Positions 265 through 10,690 of a DNA stretch of 11,801 nt are shown here, piece by piece. This DNA comes from a virus: UHGV virus genome UHGV-0074586; one strand, written 5' to 3'. Made by a program: the position numbers and the translations under genes. Position 1 is the stretch's first letter, and every line of letters starts with the position of its first letter. The notes beneath the pieces are model-generated. The model made no database searches. It saw only the letters and a list, made by a program, of their open reading frames with translations, and had not been told where the DNA came from.

Positions 265-654
265 TTAGTCAGCGAAGGTTAAGACGAGAATTACCTTAAT
301 GATGTCTGCTACAACAGACACGGCCATAGATAAACCAAAGACAATCCAAGCCATAGAGATGTCTTCACTACCATCGTATAGAGTTCCGTAATCACTGGTG
401 TAAGGCGTAAATGTCGCGCCTTGATACAACAGGTATAAGCTTGAACCATAGAGGATAAATGCAGATATCCCTTGTATTGCTATGATCACTAGAATCATGA
501 AACGAGCTGATCTATGCGCCCAAGCCTGGCTTATTTTTTCTGATAGAGATTTCGCAATAAAAGCATGCGCTAAGCCGTAAATTGTCGAGATTGACAACAT
601 CCCAAAAAAGCTTGCTATAGCGGTTCCAACCATAATCGCCCCTTGCGTGATCAA
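265..654 (-). CDS. small multi-pass inner-membrane protein in the rexB position, immediately downstream of cI; candidate superinfection-exclusion or abortive-infection protein
   Basis: 129-aa ORF with about four hydrophobic helices. Its start overlaps the cI stop in an ATGA arrangement (651..654), implying co-translation with the repressor. Function inferred only from position and topology. Confidence 0.6.
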   Translation of the reverse strand: MITQGAIMVGTAIASFFGMLSISTIYGLAHAFIAKSLSEKISQAWAHRSARFMILVIIAIQGISAFILYGSSLYLLYQGATFTPYTSDYGTLYDGSEDISMAWIVFGLSMAVSVVADIIKVILVLTFAD

Positions 655-1362
655 ACCAGCCTTAGTTTTGTCTCAATTGCAACGCCTATAATCTTGCAGT
701 TTCCATTGATTGGCACGAGAGGCCATGCAGGATTAAGTCCCTTGAGGTATTTATTTCCGCCGTCGATTATCAGCTTCTTGAATGTTGCTTCGTTAGAGTC
801 AGAAAGTTTTGCTATGACCAAGCTGCCGTTGATCGCCTCCCTTCCGGTATCGAAAAGAACGAATGTTCCCTCTGGAATGCTTAACCCAACCGGTGCCGTC
901 ATTGAATCACCTTCCACTTTAAGCCAGAACGCATTACCTTGAATATGCGCGTCAGACTCAAGCCAAACATCTATGTCTTTAATGGTGTATGGTTCGCATG
1001 CTTCACACCACGAGCCAGCCTGGATACTGCTTAACACCGGATACCTCTTTCCTGCTCTGTATTCCCCTGCATACCTTACGTTGGCATCGCTCTTAAGGCT
1101 TTCTGCCTGTTCTGCAACCTTGGCAGCAATTGACTGGCTAAAATCAGCAATTGAGACTTGCAACAGTCGTGCAAAACCAGATGCAACCGTTTAGCGCGTT
1201 TCTGCCATTAAGATAATGCCCTACCGCTCCTTGGGTGATACCCAGTTCATCAGCGATTGAGTATTGGGTTATTCCCAATTCTTTCTTTTTTGACTCATAC
1301 AAAGCCTTAAGCCGCTTAGCGTCTTCGAGCTGTTCTGTCGTCAGTGATTTTTTATTTTCCAT
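651..1362 (-). pseudogene. cI: cI-like repressor (N-terminal HTH plus C-terminal S24/LexA-type autocleavage domain) interrupted by a frameshift near 1185..1191
   Basis: ORF 1144..1362 encodes an HTH domain resembling lambda cI ([26 protein letters not shown]...). ORF 651..1163 in another frame encodes the S24 domain (Ala-Gly site, GDSMTAP serine motif, FKKL lysine motif). Reading by hand, removing one C from the CC at about 1187..1188 restores a continuous ...[23 protein letters not shown]... protein. Confidence 0.75.
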
Positions 1363-1439: not shown

Positions 1440-1468
1440 TTGTTCATGGTTAATAACGGAGAGTGCAT

Positions 1469-1663
1469 ATGATTCGAATGACACTTGCCGATTACGCCAA
1501 AATCCATGGACAGGCTAAAGCAGCCAGTGACTTTGGTGTAATCCAGTGCGCTATCAGCAAGGCCATTCTGGCAGGCCGTAACATTATGGTTACGGTAAAG
1601 CCTGATGGCAGTGTGATTGGAGAGGAAGTTCGTCCTTTCCCAAGCAACAAGAAAAACAAATAG
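1469..1663 (+). CDS. cro: Cro repressor
   Basis: 64-aa product ([64 protein letters not shown]) is colinear with lambda Cro. GGAG at 1458..1461 is 7 nt upstream of ATG 1469; the ORF-track start at GTG 1463 is probably too early. Confidence 0.88.
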
Positions 1664-1771: not shown

Positions 1772-2050
1772 ATGGAACTTACAAGTACTCGCAAGAAAGC
1801 GAATGCAATTACAAGCAACATCCTGAATCGAATTGCTGTACGTGGTCAGCGAAAGGTTGCCGACGCGTTAGGGATTAATGAATCGCAAATTTCGCGATGG
1901 AAAGACAGCTTCATCCCCAAAATGGGAATGCTTCTGGCTGTTCTTGAATGGGGTGTTGAAGACGAGGAGTTGGCGGAACTGGCTAAGAAAGTAGCCAAAA
2001 TGCTGACAAAAGAAAAAGCCCCGAAGAACGGCGAATTCTTCGAGGCCTGA
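1772..2050 (+). CDS. cII: CII transcriptional activator
   Basis: 92 aa with the ...SQISRWK...IPK...MLLAVLEWGV... core of lambda CII. The upstream ttaaggaaatacttacat-ATG matches the lambda cII initiation region as I recall it. The ORF-track start at 1685 would run through nutR and tR1 and is rejected. Confidence 0.85.
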   Translation: MELTSTRKKANAITSNILNRIAVRGQRKVADALGINESQISRWKDSFIPKMGMLLAVLEWGVEDEELAELAKKVAKMLTKEKAPKNGEFFEA

Positions 2051-2084
2051 TGTAGAAAGACTGGATCAATCCACAGGAGTAATT

Positions 2085-2246
2085 ATGACAAAACGTCGTA
2101 AGAAATACCAGGAAAAAGAAGAGATTCGACACCCTGATTCACCTGAGGGATTAGTGGTAGCCGCAGCAAATAACAGGGCGTTCGCAGAGCGCCTTGTTGG
2201 TGTTTACAGACTAGCAAAAGCAGGAGTGAAACATGGGCGTCGTTAA
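2085..2246 (+). CDS. small basic hypothetical protein (53 aa) between cII and the replication genes
   Basis: AGGAG at 2075..2079 is 5 nt upstream of ATG 2085. Product MTKRRKKYQEKEEIRHPDSPEGLVVAAANNRAFAERLVGVYRLAKAGVKHGRR. Overlaps the O-like start by 14 nt. Below the ORF-track size cutoff. Confidence 0.4.
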   Translation: MTKRRKKYQEKEEIRHPDSPEGLVVAAANNRAFAERLVGVYRLAKAGVKHGRR

Positions 2247-3123
2247 GTTAGCTGATTACAGGCATAACCCTGTACAACATCAGGAGGCATCCAGTATGGG
2301 GTATGTCTCTATACACCGCCAGTTTATGGACAGCAGGCTCTATAAGGACTCTCAGGCAGTACATCTTTGGCTTCACTTAATCCTCAAGGCTAATCACGAA
2401 TCTACTGTCGTCAATACGGATATCGGTCCGATAACTGTTGATCGCGGTCAGATGATAACTGGACGCCCGTCGCTGGTCAGAGAAACATTCATCCCCGACA
2501 ACAAAGTTCGGAGCTTATTACGGACTTTTGAGTCGAAAGGGATGCTTAATATTTGCTCGATGGGGAAGAAATTTAGCCTGTTTACAATCGTTAAATATGA
2601 CGATTTTCAGGCAAAAAATTGTCCAACGGTTGTCCAACGGTTGTCCAACGCAAACACCAGTAATGGCGAGGCTCTCAGCGGAGATTGTCCAACGGTTGTC
2701 CAACGGTTGTCCATAAACAATAATATAAATAATATCTCTAATACTGACGTATTAGAGAGTGCCACAGCAGACAAAAAGTCTGACAAGAAAAAACCTTCCG
2801 TTAGCTGTCAGGATGTTGTCGATGCTTACCACGAAATCCTTCCTGAAGCGCCAAGAATCCGCGCACTGAATGACAAGCGTAAAAACCAGATCCGAACGTT
2901 CTGGCGCAAAGCCGGAGTGATAACCCGCCAGCTTGACGGGCATGGGTTCACGATGCAGGACTGGAGAAATTATTTGAGCTACGTAGGCGAAAATTGCCGA
3001 TGGATGTTCGAAGAGCGTCCAAACCATCAACGCGGAACCGTCTGGCACAAAAAGGGATTTGATTTCCTGCTTAACGACAATACCTACCTGAAAGTTCGTG
3101 AGGGTGAACACGATGACCGATAA
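2233..3123 (+). CDS. O-like replication initiation protein (iteron-binding), origin embedded in the gene
   Basis: 296 aa. AGGAG at 2222..2226 precedes ATG 2233. Position after cII, internal iterons and translational coupling to a DnaB-type helicase indicate a lambda O / P22 gp18 analogue. Not sequence-similar to lambda O as far as I can recall. Confidence 0.7.
   Translation: MGVVKLADYRHNPVQHQEASSMGYVSIHRQFMDSRLYKDSQAVHLWLHLILKANHESTVVNTDIGPITVDRGQMITGRPSLVRETFIPDNKVRSLLRTFESKGMLNICSMGKKFSLFTIVKYDDFQAKNCPTVVQRLSNANTSNGEALSGDCPTVVQRLSINNNINNISNTDVLESATADKKSDKKKPSVSCQDVVDAYHEILPEAPRIRALNDKRKNQIRTFWRKAGVITRQLDGHGFTMQDWRNYLSYVGENCRWMFEERPNHQRGTVWHKKGFDFLLNDNTYLKVREGEHDDR
2619..2717. repeat. origin iterons: two clusters of three tandem 11-bp repeats TTGTCCAACGG (2619..2651 and 2685..2717)
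   Basis: Direct repeats with 11-bp periodicity, last copy of each cluster degenerate, clusters separated by about 33 bp, followed by an AT-rich stretch. They fall in the linker of the O-like protein (repeated translation PTVVQRLSN). Confidence 0.8.
2713..2760. promoter_or_regulatory. AT-rich DNA-unwinding-element-like tract flanking the iterons
   Basis: ataaacaataatataaataatatctctaatactgacgtattagagag is almost pure A/T directly 3' of the iterons, the classic lambdoid ori layout. Confidence 0.5.
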
Positions 3124-4549
3124 TTTTTATGCGCCGCCCCATAGCATCGAGGCAGAGCAGGCGGTGATTGGTGGATTGCTTCTGGATGATGACAGCAGTG
3201 AGCGCGTCCAGAAAGTTCTGGCGATGCTGAAGCCTGACTCATTTTACAGCCGGCCACACAAAATCCTTTTCGAAGAAATAACCAGAATGCACCGGGAGCA
3301 AAAGCCAGTAGATGGCCTGACGCTTTTCGATGAGCTGGAGCGTAAATCGTTAACGGCGTCTGTTGGCGGTTTTGCTTATATCGCTGAGATCGCAAAGAAC
3401 ACGCCAAGCGCAGCAAACATCGTTGCCTATGCAATGCAGGTTCGTGAAACCGCAATGGAACGCTACGCCATCAACCGCATGACTGAAGCGACGGAATTGC
3501 TCTATTCCCGCAACGGAATGACTGCAACACAGAAGTACGAAGCTATTCAGTCGATTTTCACGCAACTGACAGACCATGCAAAAACCGGATCGCGTCGCGG
3601 CCTTCGCTCATTTGGTGAGGTCATGGAAGACTGGGTTAGCGACCTTGAGAAGCGATTTGACCCGTCAGGCGAACAACGAGGAATGAGCACAGGGATCCCA
3701 TCGCTGGACAGGATGCTGTCACCGAAAGGTCTGGTGAAAGGCTCTCTGTTTGTCATTGGCGCTCGCCCTAAGATGGGGAAAACGACGCTATACAGCCAGA
3801 TGGCAATCAATTGCGCAGTGCATGAGAAAAAGCCAGCTCTGATGTTCAGCCTTGAAATGCCAGGTGACCAGATACTGGAAAAACTGGTAGGGCAGAAGTC
3901 TGGTGTTAACCCGAATATTTTTTACCTTCCGGCGACAAATGACGCCGATGACGGCTATCAGGGTGATTACGATGGCGACTTCAACAGGGCGATCGAAACA
4001 GCAAATCGCTTGAGTGAAATCGACCTGCTTTACATCGACGACACGCCGGGATTATCTCTGGCTCAAATCGTCAGCGAAAGCCGTCGAATCAAGCGAGAAA
4101 AAGGATGTGTTGGCATGATTCTGGTCGATTACCTGACACTAATGACCGCTGAGAAGGCCGATCGCAACGACCTTGCTTACGGCATGATCACCAAAGGACT
4201 GAAGAACCTTGCCAAAGAGCTTGATTGCGTTGTTGTGCTTCTGACACAGCTTAACCGCGCACTGGAAAGCCGAACCAATAAACGCCCATTACCAAGTGAC
4301 TCACGAGATACAGGGCAGATTGAACAGGATTGCGATTATTGGGTGGGGATCCATCGTGAAGGTGCTTTTGATGACAGCGTTCCTCCTGGTGAAACCGAAC
4401 TAATCCTTCGCCTCAATCGTCATGGCAATACCGGCACGGTGTATTGCATACAGGCAAATGGCGCTATTTATGACACAGACCAACAGTCTGCTGAAATGCG
4501 CCGCCGTGAACGCGAGGAACCGCAGTCCAAGAAGAAAGGAGGGTTCTGA
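3113..4549 (+). CDS. DnaB-family replicative helicase (P22 gp12-type)
   Basis: 478 aa with a DnaB N-terminal signature (HSIEAEQAVIGGLLLD), Walker A GARPKMGKT and a RecA-like C-terminal core. ATG 3113 overlaps the O-like stop (3121..3123); GAGGGTG lies upstream. The ORF-track GTG at 3098 is less likely. Confidence 0.9.
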   Translation: MTDNFYAPPHSIEAEQAVIGGLLLDDDSSERVQKVLAMLKPDSFYSRPHKILFEEITRMHREQKPVDGLTLFDELERKSLTASVGGFAYIAEIAKNTPSAANIVAYAMQVRETAMERYAINRMTEATELLYSRNGMTATQKYEAIQSIFTQLTDHAKTGSRRGLRSFGEVMEDWVSDLEKRFDPSGEQRGMSTGIPSLDRMLSPKGLVKGSLFVIGARPKMGKTTLYSQMAINCAVHEKKPALMFSLEMPGDQILEKLVGQKSGVNPNIFYLPATNDADDGYQGDYDGDFNRAIETANRLSEIDLLYIDDTPGLSLAQIVSESRRIKREKGCVGMILVDYLTLMTAEKADRNDLAYGMITKGLKNLAKELDCVVVLLTQLNRALESRTNKRPLPSDSRDTGQIEQDCDYWVGIHREGAFDDSVPPGETELILRLNRHGNTGTVYCIQANGAIYDTDQQSAEMRRREREEPQSKKKGGF

Positions 4550-4653
4550 TGACCATCTACATCACTGAGCTAATAGCAGGGTTATCGTTACTAATGGTTC
4601 TTACTGTATATATTATTAAGTATATTCTTTATGCGAATAAAAAAACTAATTGA
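4549..4653 (+). CDS. 34-aa hydrophobic single-pass peptide, translationally coupled to the helicase stop
   Basis: ATG 4549 overlaps the helicase TGA (4547..4549) with AGGAGG at 4538..4543. Product MTIYITELIAGLSLLMVLTVYIIKYILYANKKTN. Caveat: AT-rich DNA yields hydrophobic ORFs by chance. Confidence 0.3.
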   Translation: MTIYITELIAGLSLLMVLTVYIIKYILYANKKTN

Positions 4654-5242
4654 TCACGATGAGCTTCTGTCAACATTATCATATGACTCAGAAACAGGAA
4701 TATTTAAATGGCTAAAAACAAATTCAGTAGTAAGAGTAAAAGGTAGTATTGCTGGAGGTGTTAGTGGTGGTTATATATGCATTAGCATAAATAATGTTTT
4801 GTATTATGCGCATAGACTTGCTTGGTTCTATGTATACAAAAAATGGCCTCCTAAGTTTATTGATCATGTAAATGGGAACAGACTTGACAATAGGATTTCA
4901 AATCTAAGACTGGCAACAGAAGAGCAGAATGCAAGAAACATTGTAGGGAATAGGTTAAACACATCCGGTGCGATTGGAGTGTCTTGGTATAAGCCAACTG
5001 GCAGGTGGAAGTCTTATGTTGGTTATAAAAATAAGACAATATCGTTAGGGTATTTCGATAGCAAAGAAGATGCAGCATTCATAGCAGCACTAGCAAGAAA
5101 GAAACTATATGGAACTTATGCGAGTAAAGCACTTAATTGCGAGCATGAGCTTTTATCTCAATTTAATAATGATGAGGATAAACTTGCGGAATATCTTAAG
5201 GAAAAATCTAAAAGGACTCGAAAGCGTGTTAAAAAAAGATAA
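4631..5242 (+). CDS. HNH homing-type endonuclease with C-terminal AP2 DNA-binding domain
   Basis: HNH motif (YYAHRLAWF...IDHVNGNRLDNRISNLRLATEEQNARN) and AP2-like segment (GVSWYKPTGRWKSYVGYKNKTISLGYFDSKEDAAFIAA). The gene sits in a visibly AT-rich island unlike its neighbours. Confidence 0.85.
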   Translation: MRIKKLIDHDELLSTLSYDSETGIFKWLKTNSVVRVKGSIAGGVSGGYICISINNVLYYAHRLAWFYVYKKWPPKFIDHVNGNRLDNRISNLRLATEEQNARNIVGNRLNTSGAIGVSWYKPTGRWKSYVGYKNKTISLGYFDSKEDAAFIAALARKKLYGTYASKALNCEHELLSQFNNDEDKLAEYLKEKSKRTRKRVKKR

Positions 5243-7441: not shown

Positions 7442-7626
7442 ACGCCACAATTCAAACGATACCAGAGCTTCTTATCCAGACACGAGGCAATCAGACCGAA
7501 GTGGCGAGGATGCTTTCCTGCGCAAGAGGAACAGTGCTCAAGTACAACCGAGACAGCAAAGGCGAGCTTCACGTAATAGTTAACGGCGTCCTGATGGTCA
7601 AACAGGGCAAGAGGGGAAGACGATGA
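7438..7626 (+). CDS. ninH: NinH
   Basis: 62 aa with the ...GNQTEVARMLSCARGTVLKY...VIVNGVLMV core matching lambda NinH. ATGA overlaps on both sides. Confidence 0.8.
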   Translation: MNATIQTIPELLIQTRGNQTEVARMLSCARGTVLKYNRDSKGELHVIVNGVLMVKQGKRGRR

Positions 7627-8111
7627 GCATAAGAGAACTAAACCTCACCAAAGAGCAGCACGAGTGGCTGAATGGCTGGCTTGAACTGTGGGGCGCATGG
7701 GTTTATTCAGGTCGTCTGGAAAAGCGCATGAGCAGCGTAATAGCGAAGTTCATGGAGAGCGTAGAGCCGGGAAGAGTTATGACAAGGCCAATGTGCAATG
7801 ATGATGATGGAATGTTGATTTCTCAGGTCGTCGATTCCGTCATGTACATTGACAAGAAAGCCTTTGGAATCCTCCTCAGCTACTACGCTCATGGCTCTTC
7901 CAAGCACGCCATTGCATCTTACTATCATCGCGTCGCAAGACCTCGCAAGATGTTATGCCGTGGCGGCGGGCGCATTCAAAAACCATCGCTCGCAACCTGT
8001 CGACGGGAAGTTGACGAAATCCTTAATGCCTCGTTGTTTATGATTTACCCGGTTCTGGATAGTGCGTTTAAAAACCGGAAACGTGTAGAGAAAATTAAAC
8101 ATGTAGCATAG
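7623..8111 (+). CDS. Q-like late-gene antiterminator (non-lambda Q type)
   Basis: 162 aa, last gene before the lysis region. WGAW...RPMCNDDDGMLIS...YYAHG motifs resemble the Q proteins of 933W/82-type phages, not lambda Q. Assigned from memory and position. Confidence 0.65.
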   Translation: MSIRELNLTKEQHEWLNGWLELWGAWVYSGRLEKRMSSVIAKFMESVEPGRVMTRPMCNDDDGMLISQVVDSVMYIDKKAFGILLSYYAHGSSKHAIASYYHRVARPRKMLCRGGGRIQKPSLATCRREVDEILNASLFMIYPVLDSAFKNRKRVEKIKHVA

Positions 8112-8202: not shown

Positions 8203-8277
8203 GGGTCAGTCGTATAAAGGTCATTACTGAAGGCTGTTAACCTTCTTATCGTGGTTCGAGTCCACGCTGTCCCGCCA
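8203..8277 (+). tRNA. tRNA-Asn (anticodon GUU), phage-encoded
   Basis: Hand-folded cloverleaf: 7-bp acceptor stem with one T-T mismatch, perfect anticodon stem GAAGG/CCTTC with loop CTGTTAA, perfect T-arm CGTGG-TTCGAGT-CCACG, encoded CCA. The D-stem has only 3 pairs. Confidence 0.6.
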
Positions 8278-8282
8278 AATAT

Positions 8283-8358
8283 GCTGGTTTAGCTCCAATG
8301 GTAGAGCAGTCGCCTTGTAAGCGAATGGGTAGCGGTTCAAGTCCGTTAACCAGCACCA
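8283..8358 (+). tRNA. tRNA-Thr (anticodon UGU), phage-encoded
   Basis: Hand-folded cloverleaf: perfect acceptor stem GCTGGTT/AACCAGC, D-arm GCTC-CAATGGTA-GAGC, anticodon loop CTTGTAA, T-arm AGCGG-TTCAAGT-CCGTT, discriminator A and CCA. Confidence 0.7.
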
Positions 8359-9240: not shown

Positions 9241-10175
9241 ATCCTCCGATTTACATCGATGGCATGCTGGGAATGGGAGATACCATTTACCAGCGCGCTT
9301 TCGTCAAACAACTGCCTGCTGGGACATTCATTAAGACGGCATGGCCGGAGCTTTACGAAGATCTGCCGGTGAAAGTTGTCCGAAGTGACACCACGCTCAG
9401 AACGCAGCGTAAAAATGAGTTTCGCAGTTCGGCAAAGTTTTATCCGCCGCCATCGCCACGACAGACGAAGCGAATATTTTACGGACCGTATGATCTGCGG
9501 CGCGGTTCGATATTTGATGCGATGCGACGCCAGTTCGGCGTAACGCCAGCAGCGCTTGATTTGCCATCCTTTGGCCCGTCGCAGTTTACGCACCAAAAGC
9601 CGATCGCCGTTATCCGTCCGGCAACGGTTCGTTCTGAATGGCGTAGCGACTCCCGAAACCCTGACCCCGATTACCTCCTGCGCGCATCGAGAATCCTGCG
9701 GAAACATTTCTGCGTGATTAGCGTTGCTGATTTGCAGGACGGGGAAGAGTGGCTGGTGGGCGAAGAACCAGAGGCGGATCTGAAAATGCACGCTGGCGAG
9801 CTCAATATCAAAGAGCTGATGCGCCTGGTTGAGCATGCCGCTGTCGTGGTTACGCCTGTTGGCTGGGCGCTGCCCGCTGCCATTGCGTACAAAACACCTG
9901 TTTACGTTGTCGCTGGTGGGCGCGGTGGGCATAACGCTCCCGAGATAGTCACCGATCCGGCGATGGATTTATCCCGCGTTGGCTGGGCAATCCCGGACAA
10001 TTATTGTCGCTGCGAAGCGTGGGATCACCATTGCGACAAACGCATCTTCAACTTTGATTCAAAATTCGAGACATGGCTGAATGAAGTCGTTTTATCAGGA
10101 ACTGAACAGCGGGCTGGTATTCCTCCCGGAGCTGGGCATCGGTCGTTATCCGGTTCCGGCATCACGCCCGTATGA
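9234..10175 (+). CDS. hypothetical protein with glycosyltransferase family 9 (ADP-heptose:LPS heptosyltransferase)-like fold; 3' boundary uncertain
   Basis: ATG overlaps the upstream stop (ATGCTGA). N-terminal IYIDGMLGMGDTIYQRAFVKQL and C-terminal ELNIKELMRLVEHAAVVVTPVGWALPAAIAYKTPVYVVAGG follow the GT9 pattern, but the canonical DTGPMHLAAA motif is replaced by TPVGWALPAAIA. The ORF runs 95 nt into the next gene. Confidence 0.45.
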   Translation: MLNPPIYIDGMLGMGDTIYQRAFVKQLPAGTFIKTAWPELYEDLPVKVVRSDTTLRTQRKNEFRSSAKFYPPPSPRQTKRIFYGPYDLRRGSIFDAMRRQFGVTPAALDLPSFGPSQFTHQKPIAVIRPATVRSEWRSDSRNPDPDYLLRASRILRKHFCVISVADLQDGEEWLVGEEPEADLKMHAGELNIKELMRLVEHAAVVVTPVGWALPAAIAYKTPVYVVAGGRGGHNAPEIVTDPAMDLSRVGWAIPDNYCRCEAWDHHCDKRIFNFDSKFETWLNEVVLSGTEQRAGIPPGAGHRSLSGSGITPV

Positions 10176-10690
10176 CGAGCAGTATTTCGCGAAGTATCAG
10201 CAGCTTGCCGACACCGAAACGGGCAGAGCCTTAACGCAATCCCGTATTGAGCTGGTGGCGCGCCATTTTCACGGTCCTGTTCTCGACGTTGGTATCGGTG
10301 CCGGTCAGTTCGTCTCTACCCGACCGGGAACGCTTGGGTATGACGTTAATCCGGCTGGTATCGCCTGGCTGAACGAGCGGGGCGCATTCGCTGACCTCTA
10401 GTCAGGGGCGCGCGCTGACGATGTGGGATGTCCTGGAGCACATCGACGAGCCGGAGCTGGCGGTACAGCAGGCTACAGAGTTTGTTTTCGTGTCGATCCC
10501 CATTTTTACCGATGCCGGAGACATTCTTCGCTCGCACCATTTCAGGAAGAACGAGCACATCTGGTATTTCACTGACGACGGTATTAAGCGCTGGTTTGCA
10601 GAGCAGGGCTTCGAATGCGCTGAACAGAACACAATCGAATGCCAGTTAGGGCGTAAGGGCGTCGCTTCGTACGCTTTCCGCCGCGTTTAG
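10081..10690 (+). pseudogene. class I SAM-dependent methyltransferase split by a frameshift near 10395..10402
   Basis: ORF 10081..10401 carries motif I (VLDVGIGAGQF) and an acidic beta-2 end (GYDVNP). ORF 10421..10690 in another frame carries the DVLEH motif. The frame upstream of 10421 reads ...SSQGRALTMWDVLEH, so one indel just before the TAG at 10399..10401 would restore a single protein of about 200 aa. Confidence 0.6.

Follow-up and report, generated by a model that had tools for sequence, protein, structure and literature searches.

Identity and annotation of the small gene

The open reading frame of 53 codons at 2085-2246 of the window, by which we mean the whole stretch of 11,801 nucleotides from virus genome UHGV-0074586, can be regarded on comparative sequence evidence as a practically certain protein-coding gene of the HK97 gp53 / Sf6 gp42 family (phrog_1331). 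As first cistron it opens a replication module of the lambdoid type, ahead of an O-like initiator gene and a phage-encoded helicase gene. The explanation that best accounts for the data as a whole joins a genuine gene, the start site that it occupies, its coupling to the initiator gene and an accessory mechanism of its product, and we consider this combination probable. The gene as such is already known, annotated and described, and its finding is ordinary. The genes of the window to which the following sections refer are:

651-1362, minus strand: cI-type repressor of the lambdoid early-right region
1463-1663, plus strand: cro (Pfam Cro, 3.6e-26)
1772..2050, plus strand: cII-like activator gene, directly upstream of the small ORF (Pfam Phage_CII, 8e-43)
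2085..2246, plus strand: gene of a small basic protein of 53 aa, HK97 gp53 / Sf6 gp42 / phrog_1331 family (ORF, profile match and comparative coding evidence)
2233..3123, plus strand: O-like initiator gene (phrog_345, E 4e-85; compare Sf6 gene 43 and its rep_origin annotation)
2619-2705, on the strand of the O-like gene (plus) and inside it: five origin iterons TTGTCCAACG, recognized as sequence repeats
3113..4549, plus strand: DnaB-type replicative helicase, third gene of the module (Pfam DnaB 3e-31, DnaB_C 3e-60)

The sequence-only reading from which this study started had called the small ORF unannotated, which is wrong. Its translation covers the full profile of phrog_1331 (E 1.4e-37), residues 1-53 being aligned to profile positions 1-53 of 53, and PHROG labels this family "unknown function". 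It is 100% identical over 53 aa to the annotated coding sequences of HK97 Gp53, mEpX2 gp46 and the Sf6 gene 42 protein, the last of which is annotated as "Phage HK97 53 protein homolog", and near-identical to those of ES18 gp58 (94%) and epsilon34 gp49 (98%). HK97 Gp53, Sf6 gp42, ES18 gp58 and epsilon34 gp49 represent the same protein in the same position, likewise overlapping the initiator gene by 14 nt, and no notable difference from the window was seen. The coding sequence is also annotated in HK542, HK446, HK544, Stx2 phage 1717 and many others. By tblastn the protein was found in 97 phage records, in 61 of these at 99% identity or higher, with matches of 100% that include HK446 and Stx phages. 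In E. coli the protein has the RefSeq accession WP_000166961.1 ("hypothetical protein"). Of 5426 complete E. coli genomes, 561 (~10%) have a match to most of a 251-bp region around the ORF, and every listed E. coli match that covers the ORF has a PGAP "hypothetical protein" underneath.

The locus has been described in the literature as well. Hayes et al. 2012 (PMC3349717) reported the layout cII-oop-orf-O-P, whose "orf" is the small ORF, used the conserved 33-bp sequence ACTGGATCaATCcACAGGAGTaATTATGaCAAA to find the locus, and took as position 1 the ATG with which lambda O, the P22 orf48 homologues or the HK97 gp53 homologues begin. In our literature search on the small ORF family and on the Pfam family DUF2740 this was the only paper retrieved, and no experiment or functional paper was found. 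The name 'orf48' also appears in papers on accessory-gene screens, where it belongs to another, unrelated numbering. GenBank has listed the gene from the genome papers of HK97, HK022 and Sf6 onward, RefSeq calls it as a matter of routine, and it carries little weight as a discovery. The replication module to which it belongs is widespread in prophages of E. coli, Shigella and Salmonella and in Stx-phage prophages, and no gene of this module is better conserved.

Coding evidence

In the ORF listing the small ORF starts with ATG and is translated as MTKRRKKYQEKEEIRHPDSPEGLVVAAANNRAFAERLVGVYRLAKAGVKHGRR. The product contains 14 K+R versus 6 D+E, with a pI of 10.7 and a charge of about +7.7, exactly the basic, Lys/Arg-rich ORF of 53 aa that had been described from the sequence. 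Its length alone is not significant, because 89 ORFs of at least 40 aa are found in the six frames of the window. It is the comparative data, and not the length, that raise this ORF above chance, as judged from the aligned sequences.

The comparative sample consisted of 17 loci obtained by a pattern scan, with one genome per species and 57-100% protein identity. These loci derive from ten named Enterobacterales genera and from two records (L004 and L007) whose non-enterobacterial labels look wrong. The ATG and the open frame are kept in 17 out of 17 loci, and an SD-like purine run precedes the ATG in 16, the exception being L019. Indels among the homologues comprise whole codons. The median of the pairwise Nei-Gojobori dN/dS values is 0.18, at a pS of 0.6-0.78 that brings the synonymous sites near saturation. 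Column entropies of 0.54, 0.38, and 1.19 at codon positions 1, 2, and 3 identify the third position as the most variable one. Pooled pN/pS amounts to 0.32 in frame and to 1.55 and 2.04 when the reading frame is shifted. Across the 17 loci stop codons are absent from the frame of the small ORF, whereas each of the five other frames contains 14 to 62.

Overall, a dN/dS of about 0.2-0.3 indicates purifying selection on the peptide. Conservation and dN/dS across related prophages, both proposed beforehand as checks, thus speak for the gene, and loss of the frame in homologous regions, which had been named as the outcome that would argue against it, was not seen in any of the 17 loci. The probability that the open frame is incidental, its conservation being due to the boundary sequence, to the promoter pO or to the 5' leader of the initiator gene, is close to nil. 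An incidental frame would be in keeping with the many ORFs of similar size in the window, with the position of its first 8 nt in a conserved sequence of 33 bp, and with the putative -10 element of pO, which overlaps its start. Against it stand third codon positions that are the least conserved ones along the whole ORF, a frame that is the only one open in all 17 loci, and the frame-specificity of pN/pS. In one locus (L126) the small ORF is frameshifted to 22 aa within a module that is otherwise 99% identical, and for this reason the gene may be dispensable.

The boundary sequence and the start site shared with lambda O

The start of the small ORF lies in a short region in which several elements of both strands are superimposed:

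2060..2092, no strand assigned: lambdoid 'boundary sequence' of 33 bp, ACTGGATCAATCCACAGGAGTAATTATGACAAA (Sf6 bsq5), an exact and single match in the window
2075..2079, plus strand: Shine-Dalgarno sequence AGGAG of the small ORF with a 5-nt spacer (from the sequence and from the purine runs of the sampled loci)
2082..2090, minus strand: inferred -10 element of pO with upstream TG, TGTCATAAT (bases identical to lambda; the P22 oop promoter is annotated here)
2006..2074, minus strand: oop-like antisense RNA with an inferred 5'-end at 2074 (terminator scan, fold, and homology to the lambda and P22 annotations)

The boundary sequence matches the window once and exactly, where no match is expected by chance. 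Hayes et al. 2012 quote the identical sequence, and in Sf6 it is annotated as bsq5. Its plus strand provides the SD, the ATG, and the first codons (the first 8 nt) of the small ORF, and its minus strand the putative 5'-end of the oop-like RNA together with the putative -10 of pO. The consensus AGGAG with good spacing that had been noticed before the ORF is confirmed at 2075-2079, 5 nt ahead of the ATG at 2085.

Lambda and the window are identical at 30 of the 33 positions. The cII-oop-O junction of lambda has in common with the window this 33-bp sequence, the oop 5'-end, the -10 of pO, and a homologous SD followed by the start ATGACAAA. It differs in that the ATG of the boundary sequence is the start of O in lambda, whose module uses P with the host DnaB and not a helicase of its own. 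In the window the start of the initiator gene sits 148 nt further downstream. Since the small ORF takes over the start site of lambda O, it is not a mere filler of the gap between cII and O. The sequence-only reading had placed it in the cII-O interval, between cII and the O-like initiator gene, where lambda is without a gene; this position is correct, but simple gap-filling is not, because the ORF begins at the SD and ATG of lambda O and displaces the initiator by 148 nt.

Within the end of cII, the terminator scan detected on the minus strand the stem of an oop-like terminator (2048..2016) with a T-run behind it. The 71-nt transcript of this strand is predicted to fold into two hairpins (-27.2 kcal/mol, z -4.3). 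An oop promoter and terminator are annotated at the homologous positions of P22, and those of lambda are likewise homologous. We therefore list 2006..2074 as a putative transcript. Its 5'-end would lie 1 nt upstream of the SD of the small ORF, and the RNA would run leftward into cII, away from the ORF. The putative -10 of pO overlaps the start codon and codons 1-2 of the small ORF. The assignment of pO draws on homology to lambda and P22 only, since its -35 is poor and a sigma-70 consensus scan called no full promoter at this site. Rfam returned no family at the oop-like locus; its only hits in the window were two tRNAs located elsewhere.

Junction with the initiator gene

At its 3'-end the small ORF is interlocked with the O-like gene by two further elements:

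2222..2226, plus strand: the O-like gene's own SD, AGGAG, within the codons Ala-Gly-Val of the small ORF (from the sequence)
2233..2246, plus strand: overlap of 14 nt, ATGGGCGTCGTTAA, between the start codon of the O-like gene and the stop codon of the small ORF

An overlap of the ATGGGCGTCGTTAA type measures 14 nt in 16 of the 17 diverged loci and 17 nt in the remaining one, and in nearly all of them a GGAG or GGGG run precedes the start codon of O by 6-10 nt. To judge from the sequence, the conserved overlap and the embedded SD form a translational-coupling architecture. The earlier proposal that the overlap with the O-like start implies coupled expression from the early rightward transcript fits these data, and co-expression of the small ORF with the initiator gene is very likely. 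The small ORF would be transcribed from pR, after cII, and ribosomes that terminate on it would be released beside the SD and ATG of the initiator gene, so that both proteins would be made together.

Regardless of the type of initiator that follows, its first ~10 residues (MGVVKLADYR) go together with the small ORF. In L009, L016, and L019, where the upstream gene is not cII, the small ORF stays with the initiator gene. RNAalifold detected in 17 sequences no conserved RNA structure that would hide the O ribosome binding site until upstream ribosomes open it; the consensus has -1.9 kcal/mol and only 5 pairs, which leave the SD and ATG free. A fold predicted at the junction from the single sequence (z -2.5) was dropped, as no consensus structure exists across the 17 loci.

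Short ORFs that are coupled to a replication gene are known from plasmid rep leaders, namely tap-repA of R1 and repY-repZ of ColIb-P9. By the same principle, translation of the small ORF might only set the expression of the initiator through coupling, the peptide itself being functionless. The likeness to R1 tap and ColIb-P9 repY consists in a short ORF overlapping the start of an initiator gene with an antisense RNA nearby, here an oop-like RNA that begins 1 nt upstream of the SD. In contrast to these leaders, the peptide of the small ORF is under selection, with a dN/dS of about 0.2-0.3 at saturated synonymous sites, and its indels are whole codons. Furthermore, O has a strong SD of its own that no conserved structure occludes, and the oop-like RNA runs off leftward and leaves the ribosome binding site of the small ORF uncovered. 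A pure leader function is consequently very improbable.

Association with the type of helicase

What follows the boundary ATG in other phages was recorded without pre-selection in a scan of IMG/VR for the boundary sequence, with the three variable positions left free, which yielded 120 loci. Helicases were counted in those of the 120 loci that have at least 3.5 kb of downstream sequence, with the following result:

gp53-type ORF at the boundary ATG: DnaB-like helicase 21, gp4-like primase-helicase 1, lambda P 0
orf48-type ORF at the boundary ATG: DnaB-like helicase 9, gp4-like primase-helicase 6, lambda P 0
O itself at the boundary ATG: DnaB-like helicase 0, gp4-like primase-helicase 0, lambda P 21 (O is truncated in one copy)

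Hence, among the IMG/VR loci with enough flanking sequence there is not a single exception to the rule that a small ORF goes with a phage-encoded helicase and O at the boundary ATG with lambda P. A DnaB-type helicase (28-95% identity) was also present in 17 out of 17 genome loci, and ES18 and Oslo, in which a gp4-like primase-helicase accompanies the small ORF, follow the same pattern. The association may reflect few evolutionary events, e.g. one deletion on the branch that led to lambda O-P, because these phages are mosaic and closely related. The strict link between the small ORF and a phage helicase nevertheless offers a cheap, testable hypothesis on replication initiation or on host shutdown.

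Within these modules three kinds of initiator N-domain accompany the gp53-type ORF, namely the type of the window and Sf6, a P22 gp18-like type, and a type 93% identical to that of lambda O, the latter in ES18-type modules. Co-variation of the small ORF with its neighbors was analysed in a set of 19 modules:

Mean pairwise identity, small ORF: 0.70
Mean pairwise identity, initiator N-domain: 0.36
Mean pairwise identity, initiator C-domain: 0.29
Mean pairwise identity, helicase: 0.40
Mantel test, small ORF versus initiator N-domain: r 0.05, p 0.24
Mantel test, small ORF versus initiator C-domain: r 0.25, p 0.026
Mantel test, small ORF versus helicase: r 0.11, p 0.18
Mantel test, initiator C-domain versus helicase: r 0.69, p 0.0005

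The initiator C-domain and the helicase co-vary strongly, as expected of partners. The small ORF is part of the replication module, yet it shows no co-evolution with the main domains of the module's proteins. It does correlate with the first 10 residues of O (r 0.58), a correlation that is due to physical overlap and linkage.

These data bear on the possibility that the small protein serves the initiator and helicase of the phage itself as a specific adaptor, or as a partner resembling a loader, and stands in for lambda P. It co-occurs perfectly with own-helicase modules, is absent from lambda P modules, would be co-translated with the initiator, and is accompanied by the first 10 residues of O, as an adaptor should be. 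The same or a near-identical protein is, however, found with three unrelated initiator N-domains and several C-domains, and the helicases next to it comprise DnaB-like proteins only 30% identical to each other as well as a gp4-like primase-helicase. Its lack of co-variation with the helicase or the O domains, set against the strong co-variation of O C-domain and helicase, also argues against a dedicated partner, and we regard this role as quite unlikely.

Protein properties and relatives

An AlphaFold2 model based on an alignment of 32 sequences shows a disordered, K/R-rich N-terminus of 20 residues and a helix from 21 to 49, with a mean pLDDT of 70, which is a moderate confidence only, and values of 80-89 over residues 21-40. 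From this model the product is predicted to be a very basic protein of ~6 kDa that consists of a disordered K/R-rich N-terminus and one helix of ~29 residues. Invariant or nearly invariant residues form the cluster P20-x-G-L-V...N30..F-A-E-R..G39..R42.A44. An amphipathic or coiled-coil nature of the helix is not claimed, as its hydrophobic moment is not significant (19% of shuffles were at least as high); this counts among the points against the proposed mechanism.

The small ORF had no match in Pfam, NCBIfam, and PADLOC, and a profile search of all PDB chains gave nothing better than an unrelated radical SAM protein (E 7.5). The family is small and narrow and comprises 68 clusters at 90% identity. 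An exhaustive HMM search of 1.84 billion representatives retrieved only 24 clusters at 50% identity, all of them short proteins of the same family, and neither larger relatives nor informative fusions. A relation to the FtsH inhibitor CIII of lambda was considered and dismissed; the two are of similar size only, share no sequence similarity, and the gene studied here stays with O and not with cII.

Other occupants of the slot

The earlier statement on small ORFs of P22-like phages in this interval is correct in a double sense, which needs to be specified: phages such as Sf6 and epsilon34 possess the same family, and P22 itself has orf48, a member of an unrelated one. P22 orf48 is a member of Pfam DUF2740 (PF10872, 2e-28). 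Between the small ORF and orf48 no homology was detectable by BLASTP (E 3.9) or hhalign (probability 0.05%), and a search of the small ORF against Pfam, DUF2740 included, produced no match at E values up to 1. On these results homology of the two was rejected. Like the small ORF, orf48 starts at the homologous boundary ATG, overlaps the start of the initiator gene (gene 18), encodes ~50 aa with a pI above 10, and is found only with phage-encoded helicases.

The presence of two unrelated families in one slot fits a hotspot for accessory genes as well as it fits a role in replication.

Possible roles of the small protein

We propose that the target of the small protein may be a conserved partner, either nucleic acid or a protein of the host, and not the variable surfaces of initiator and helicase. 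Such a mode of action is suggested because the protein is the most conserved one in the module, occurs alongside three kinds of initiator N-domain and two types of helicase, does not track their divergence, and is highly basic. As it occurs only in modules with their own helicase, it would be a non-core accessory factor that favors replication initiation driven by the phage helicase. This putative accessory role in replication, exerted through a conserved partner, is put forward tentatively as our best guess; it is possible, and clearly less secure than the gene and its coupling to the initiator. Classical P22 genetics is not known to have assigned a replication function to genes other than 18 and 12, which counts against a replication role.

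A different reading assumes an accessory ('moron-like') early gene that has no link to replication, modulates the host, counteracts defence or influences the lysis-lysogeny decision, and simply rides in the boundary slot. Most characterised small early proteins of lambdoid phages (Kil, CIII, Gam, Ral) act on host targets, which favors this reading. It also gains from the alternation of gp53-type and orf48/DUF2740 genes directly after bsq5, which is typical of accessory-gene hotspots, from a divergence of the small ORF that is independent of the replication proteins, and from the frameshifted copy of L126 in an otherwise intact module. A gene that merely rides along is, however, hard to reconcile with the interlocking with the initiator gene through a conserved 14-nt overlap and an embedded SD, with the small ORF following the initiator when the upstream gene changes, and with its strict confinement to helicase-encoding modules, and PADLOC gave no match. 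On balance, an accessory gene unconnected with replication appears rather unlikely.

A further reading can be formulated by analogy. In S. aureus phage 77, the ORF104 protein of 52 residues inhibits DnaI, the helicase loader of the host (PMC4887207). It resembles the small protein in size and in being encoded with replication genes, by way of analogy only; it derives from another host and phage lineage, and the PDB profile search (best E 7.5) matched the small ORF to no PDB chain by sequence and did not place it with 77ORF104. In the same manner, though with an unrelated protein, the putative function of the gp53-type protein, and by analogy also of DUF2740/orf48, might be that of a host-replication takeover factor that neutralises DnaB/DnaC loading or another conserved step of the host replisome. 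We consider this improbable as it stands. If true, host replisome components would be freed for the phage's own helicase. A takeover function would also explain why the gene occurs only with an own helicase and never with the host-DnaB-dependent lambda P, why it is more conserved than the surrounding phage proteins, and why its divergence does not track theirs.

Occupation of the slot after the boundary-sequence ATG

In IMG/VR loci carrying the 33-bp lambdoid boundary sequence (L026-L145) and in P22, the slot located 3' of the boundary-sequence ATG is occupied either by a gp53-type ORF, the type of the small ORF in the window, or by the unrelated orf48/DUF2740 ORF.

850-996 (P22 locus L021): slot after the boundary-sequence ATG

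ORFs of both types were found only alongside phage-encoded helicases, either DnaB-like or gp4-like, and O genes starting right at this ATG only in lambda P modules. The two arrangements were represented by 37 and 21 loci, respectively, with zero exceptions. In the IMG/VR locus L126, whose module is approximately 99% identical to the window, the small ORF is frameshifted and encodes only 22 aa. The small ORF may be dispensable, or this frameshift may be a sequencing error.

The start codon of the small ORF is overlapped by the inferred -10 element (TGTCATAAT) of the promoter of an oop-like antisense RNA, which is without an Rfam family.

2006-2090 (-): oop-like antisense RNA and the inferred -10 element; the RNA folds into two hairpins (-27.2 kcal/mol, z -4.3)
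2048..2016 (-): its terminator

Chimeric initiators were found in the ES18-type loci L057, L088, and L112. Here, the gp53-linked N-terminus MGVVKLADYRP... is fused to an N-domain approximately 93% identical to that of lambda O. The C-terminal part differs, and a primase-helicase comes next. These chimeras show recombination within O near codon 17. In modules of the ES18/epsilon34 type, the O-like gene is separated from the gp4-like primase-helicase by a second tiny ORF of 35 aa (ES18 gp60), for which Pfam gave no match.

4001-4108 (L023, ES18): second tiny ORF
4001-4108 (L025, Oslo): second tiny ORF

Two of the genome records compared, L004 (organism label 'Bacillota bacterium MAG') and L007 (organism label 'Chryseobacterium sp.'), contain enterobacterial lambdoid prophage sequence, probably due to contamination or mis-binning in both assemblies.

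Other genes in the window

651-1362 (-): cI-type repressor gene
4631-5242 (+): HNH_3 and AP2 domain protein gene, homing-endonuclease type, directly 3' of the helicase gene
7623-8111: Q-type antiterminator gene
8203-8274 and 8283-8355 (+): two tRNA genes
10081-10401 and 10421-10690 (+): neighboring ORFs

Compared to mEpX2 cI (717 bp, 238 aa), the cI-type gene lacks 5 bp (CTCAA) near 1187 and is otherwise 99% identical. The frame is therefore broken into two ORFs (651-1163 and 1144-1362). The gene thus seems to encode no active repressor, pointing to a mutant with clear plaques, to a prophage in decay or to an error in the assembly.

The two neighboring ORFs look like halves of a single SAM-dependent methyltransferase gene, which may be interrupted; the downstream ORF aligns with positions 87-163 of the 164 in Methyltransf_23, its C-terminal part. 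Whereas ninA follows the helicase gene in Sf6 and P22, this position is taken by the HNH_3 and AP2 gene in the window. Just 3' of the Q-type antiterminator gene lie the tRNA genes, an arrangement shared with Stx-phage-like late regions.
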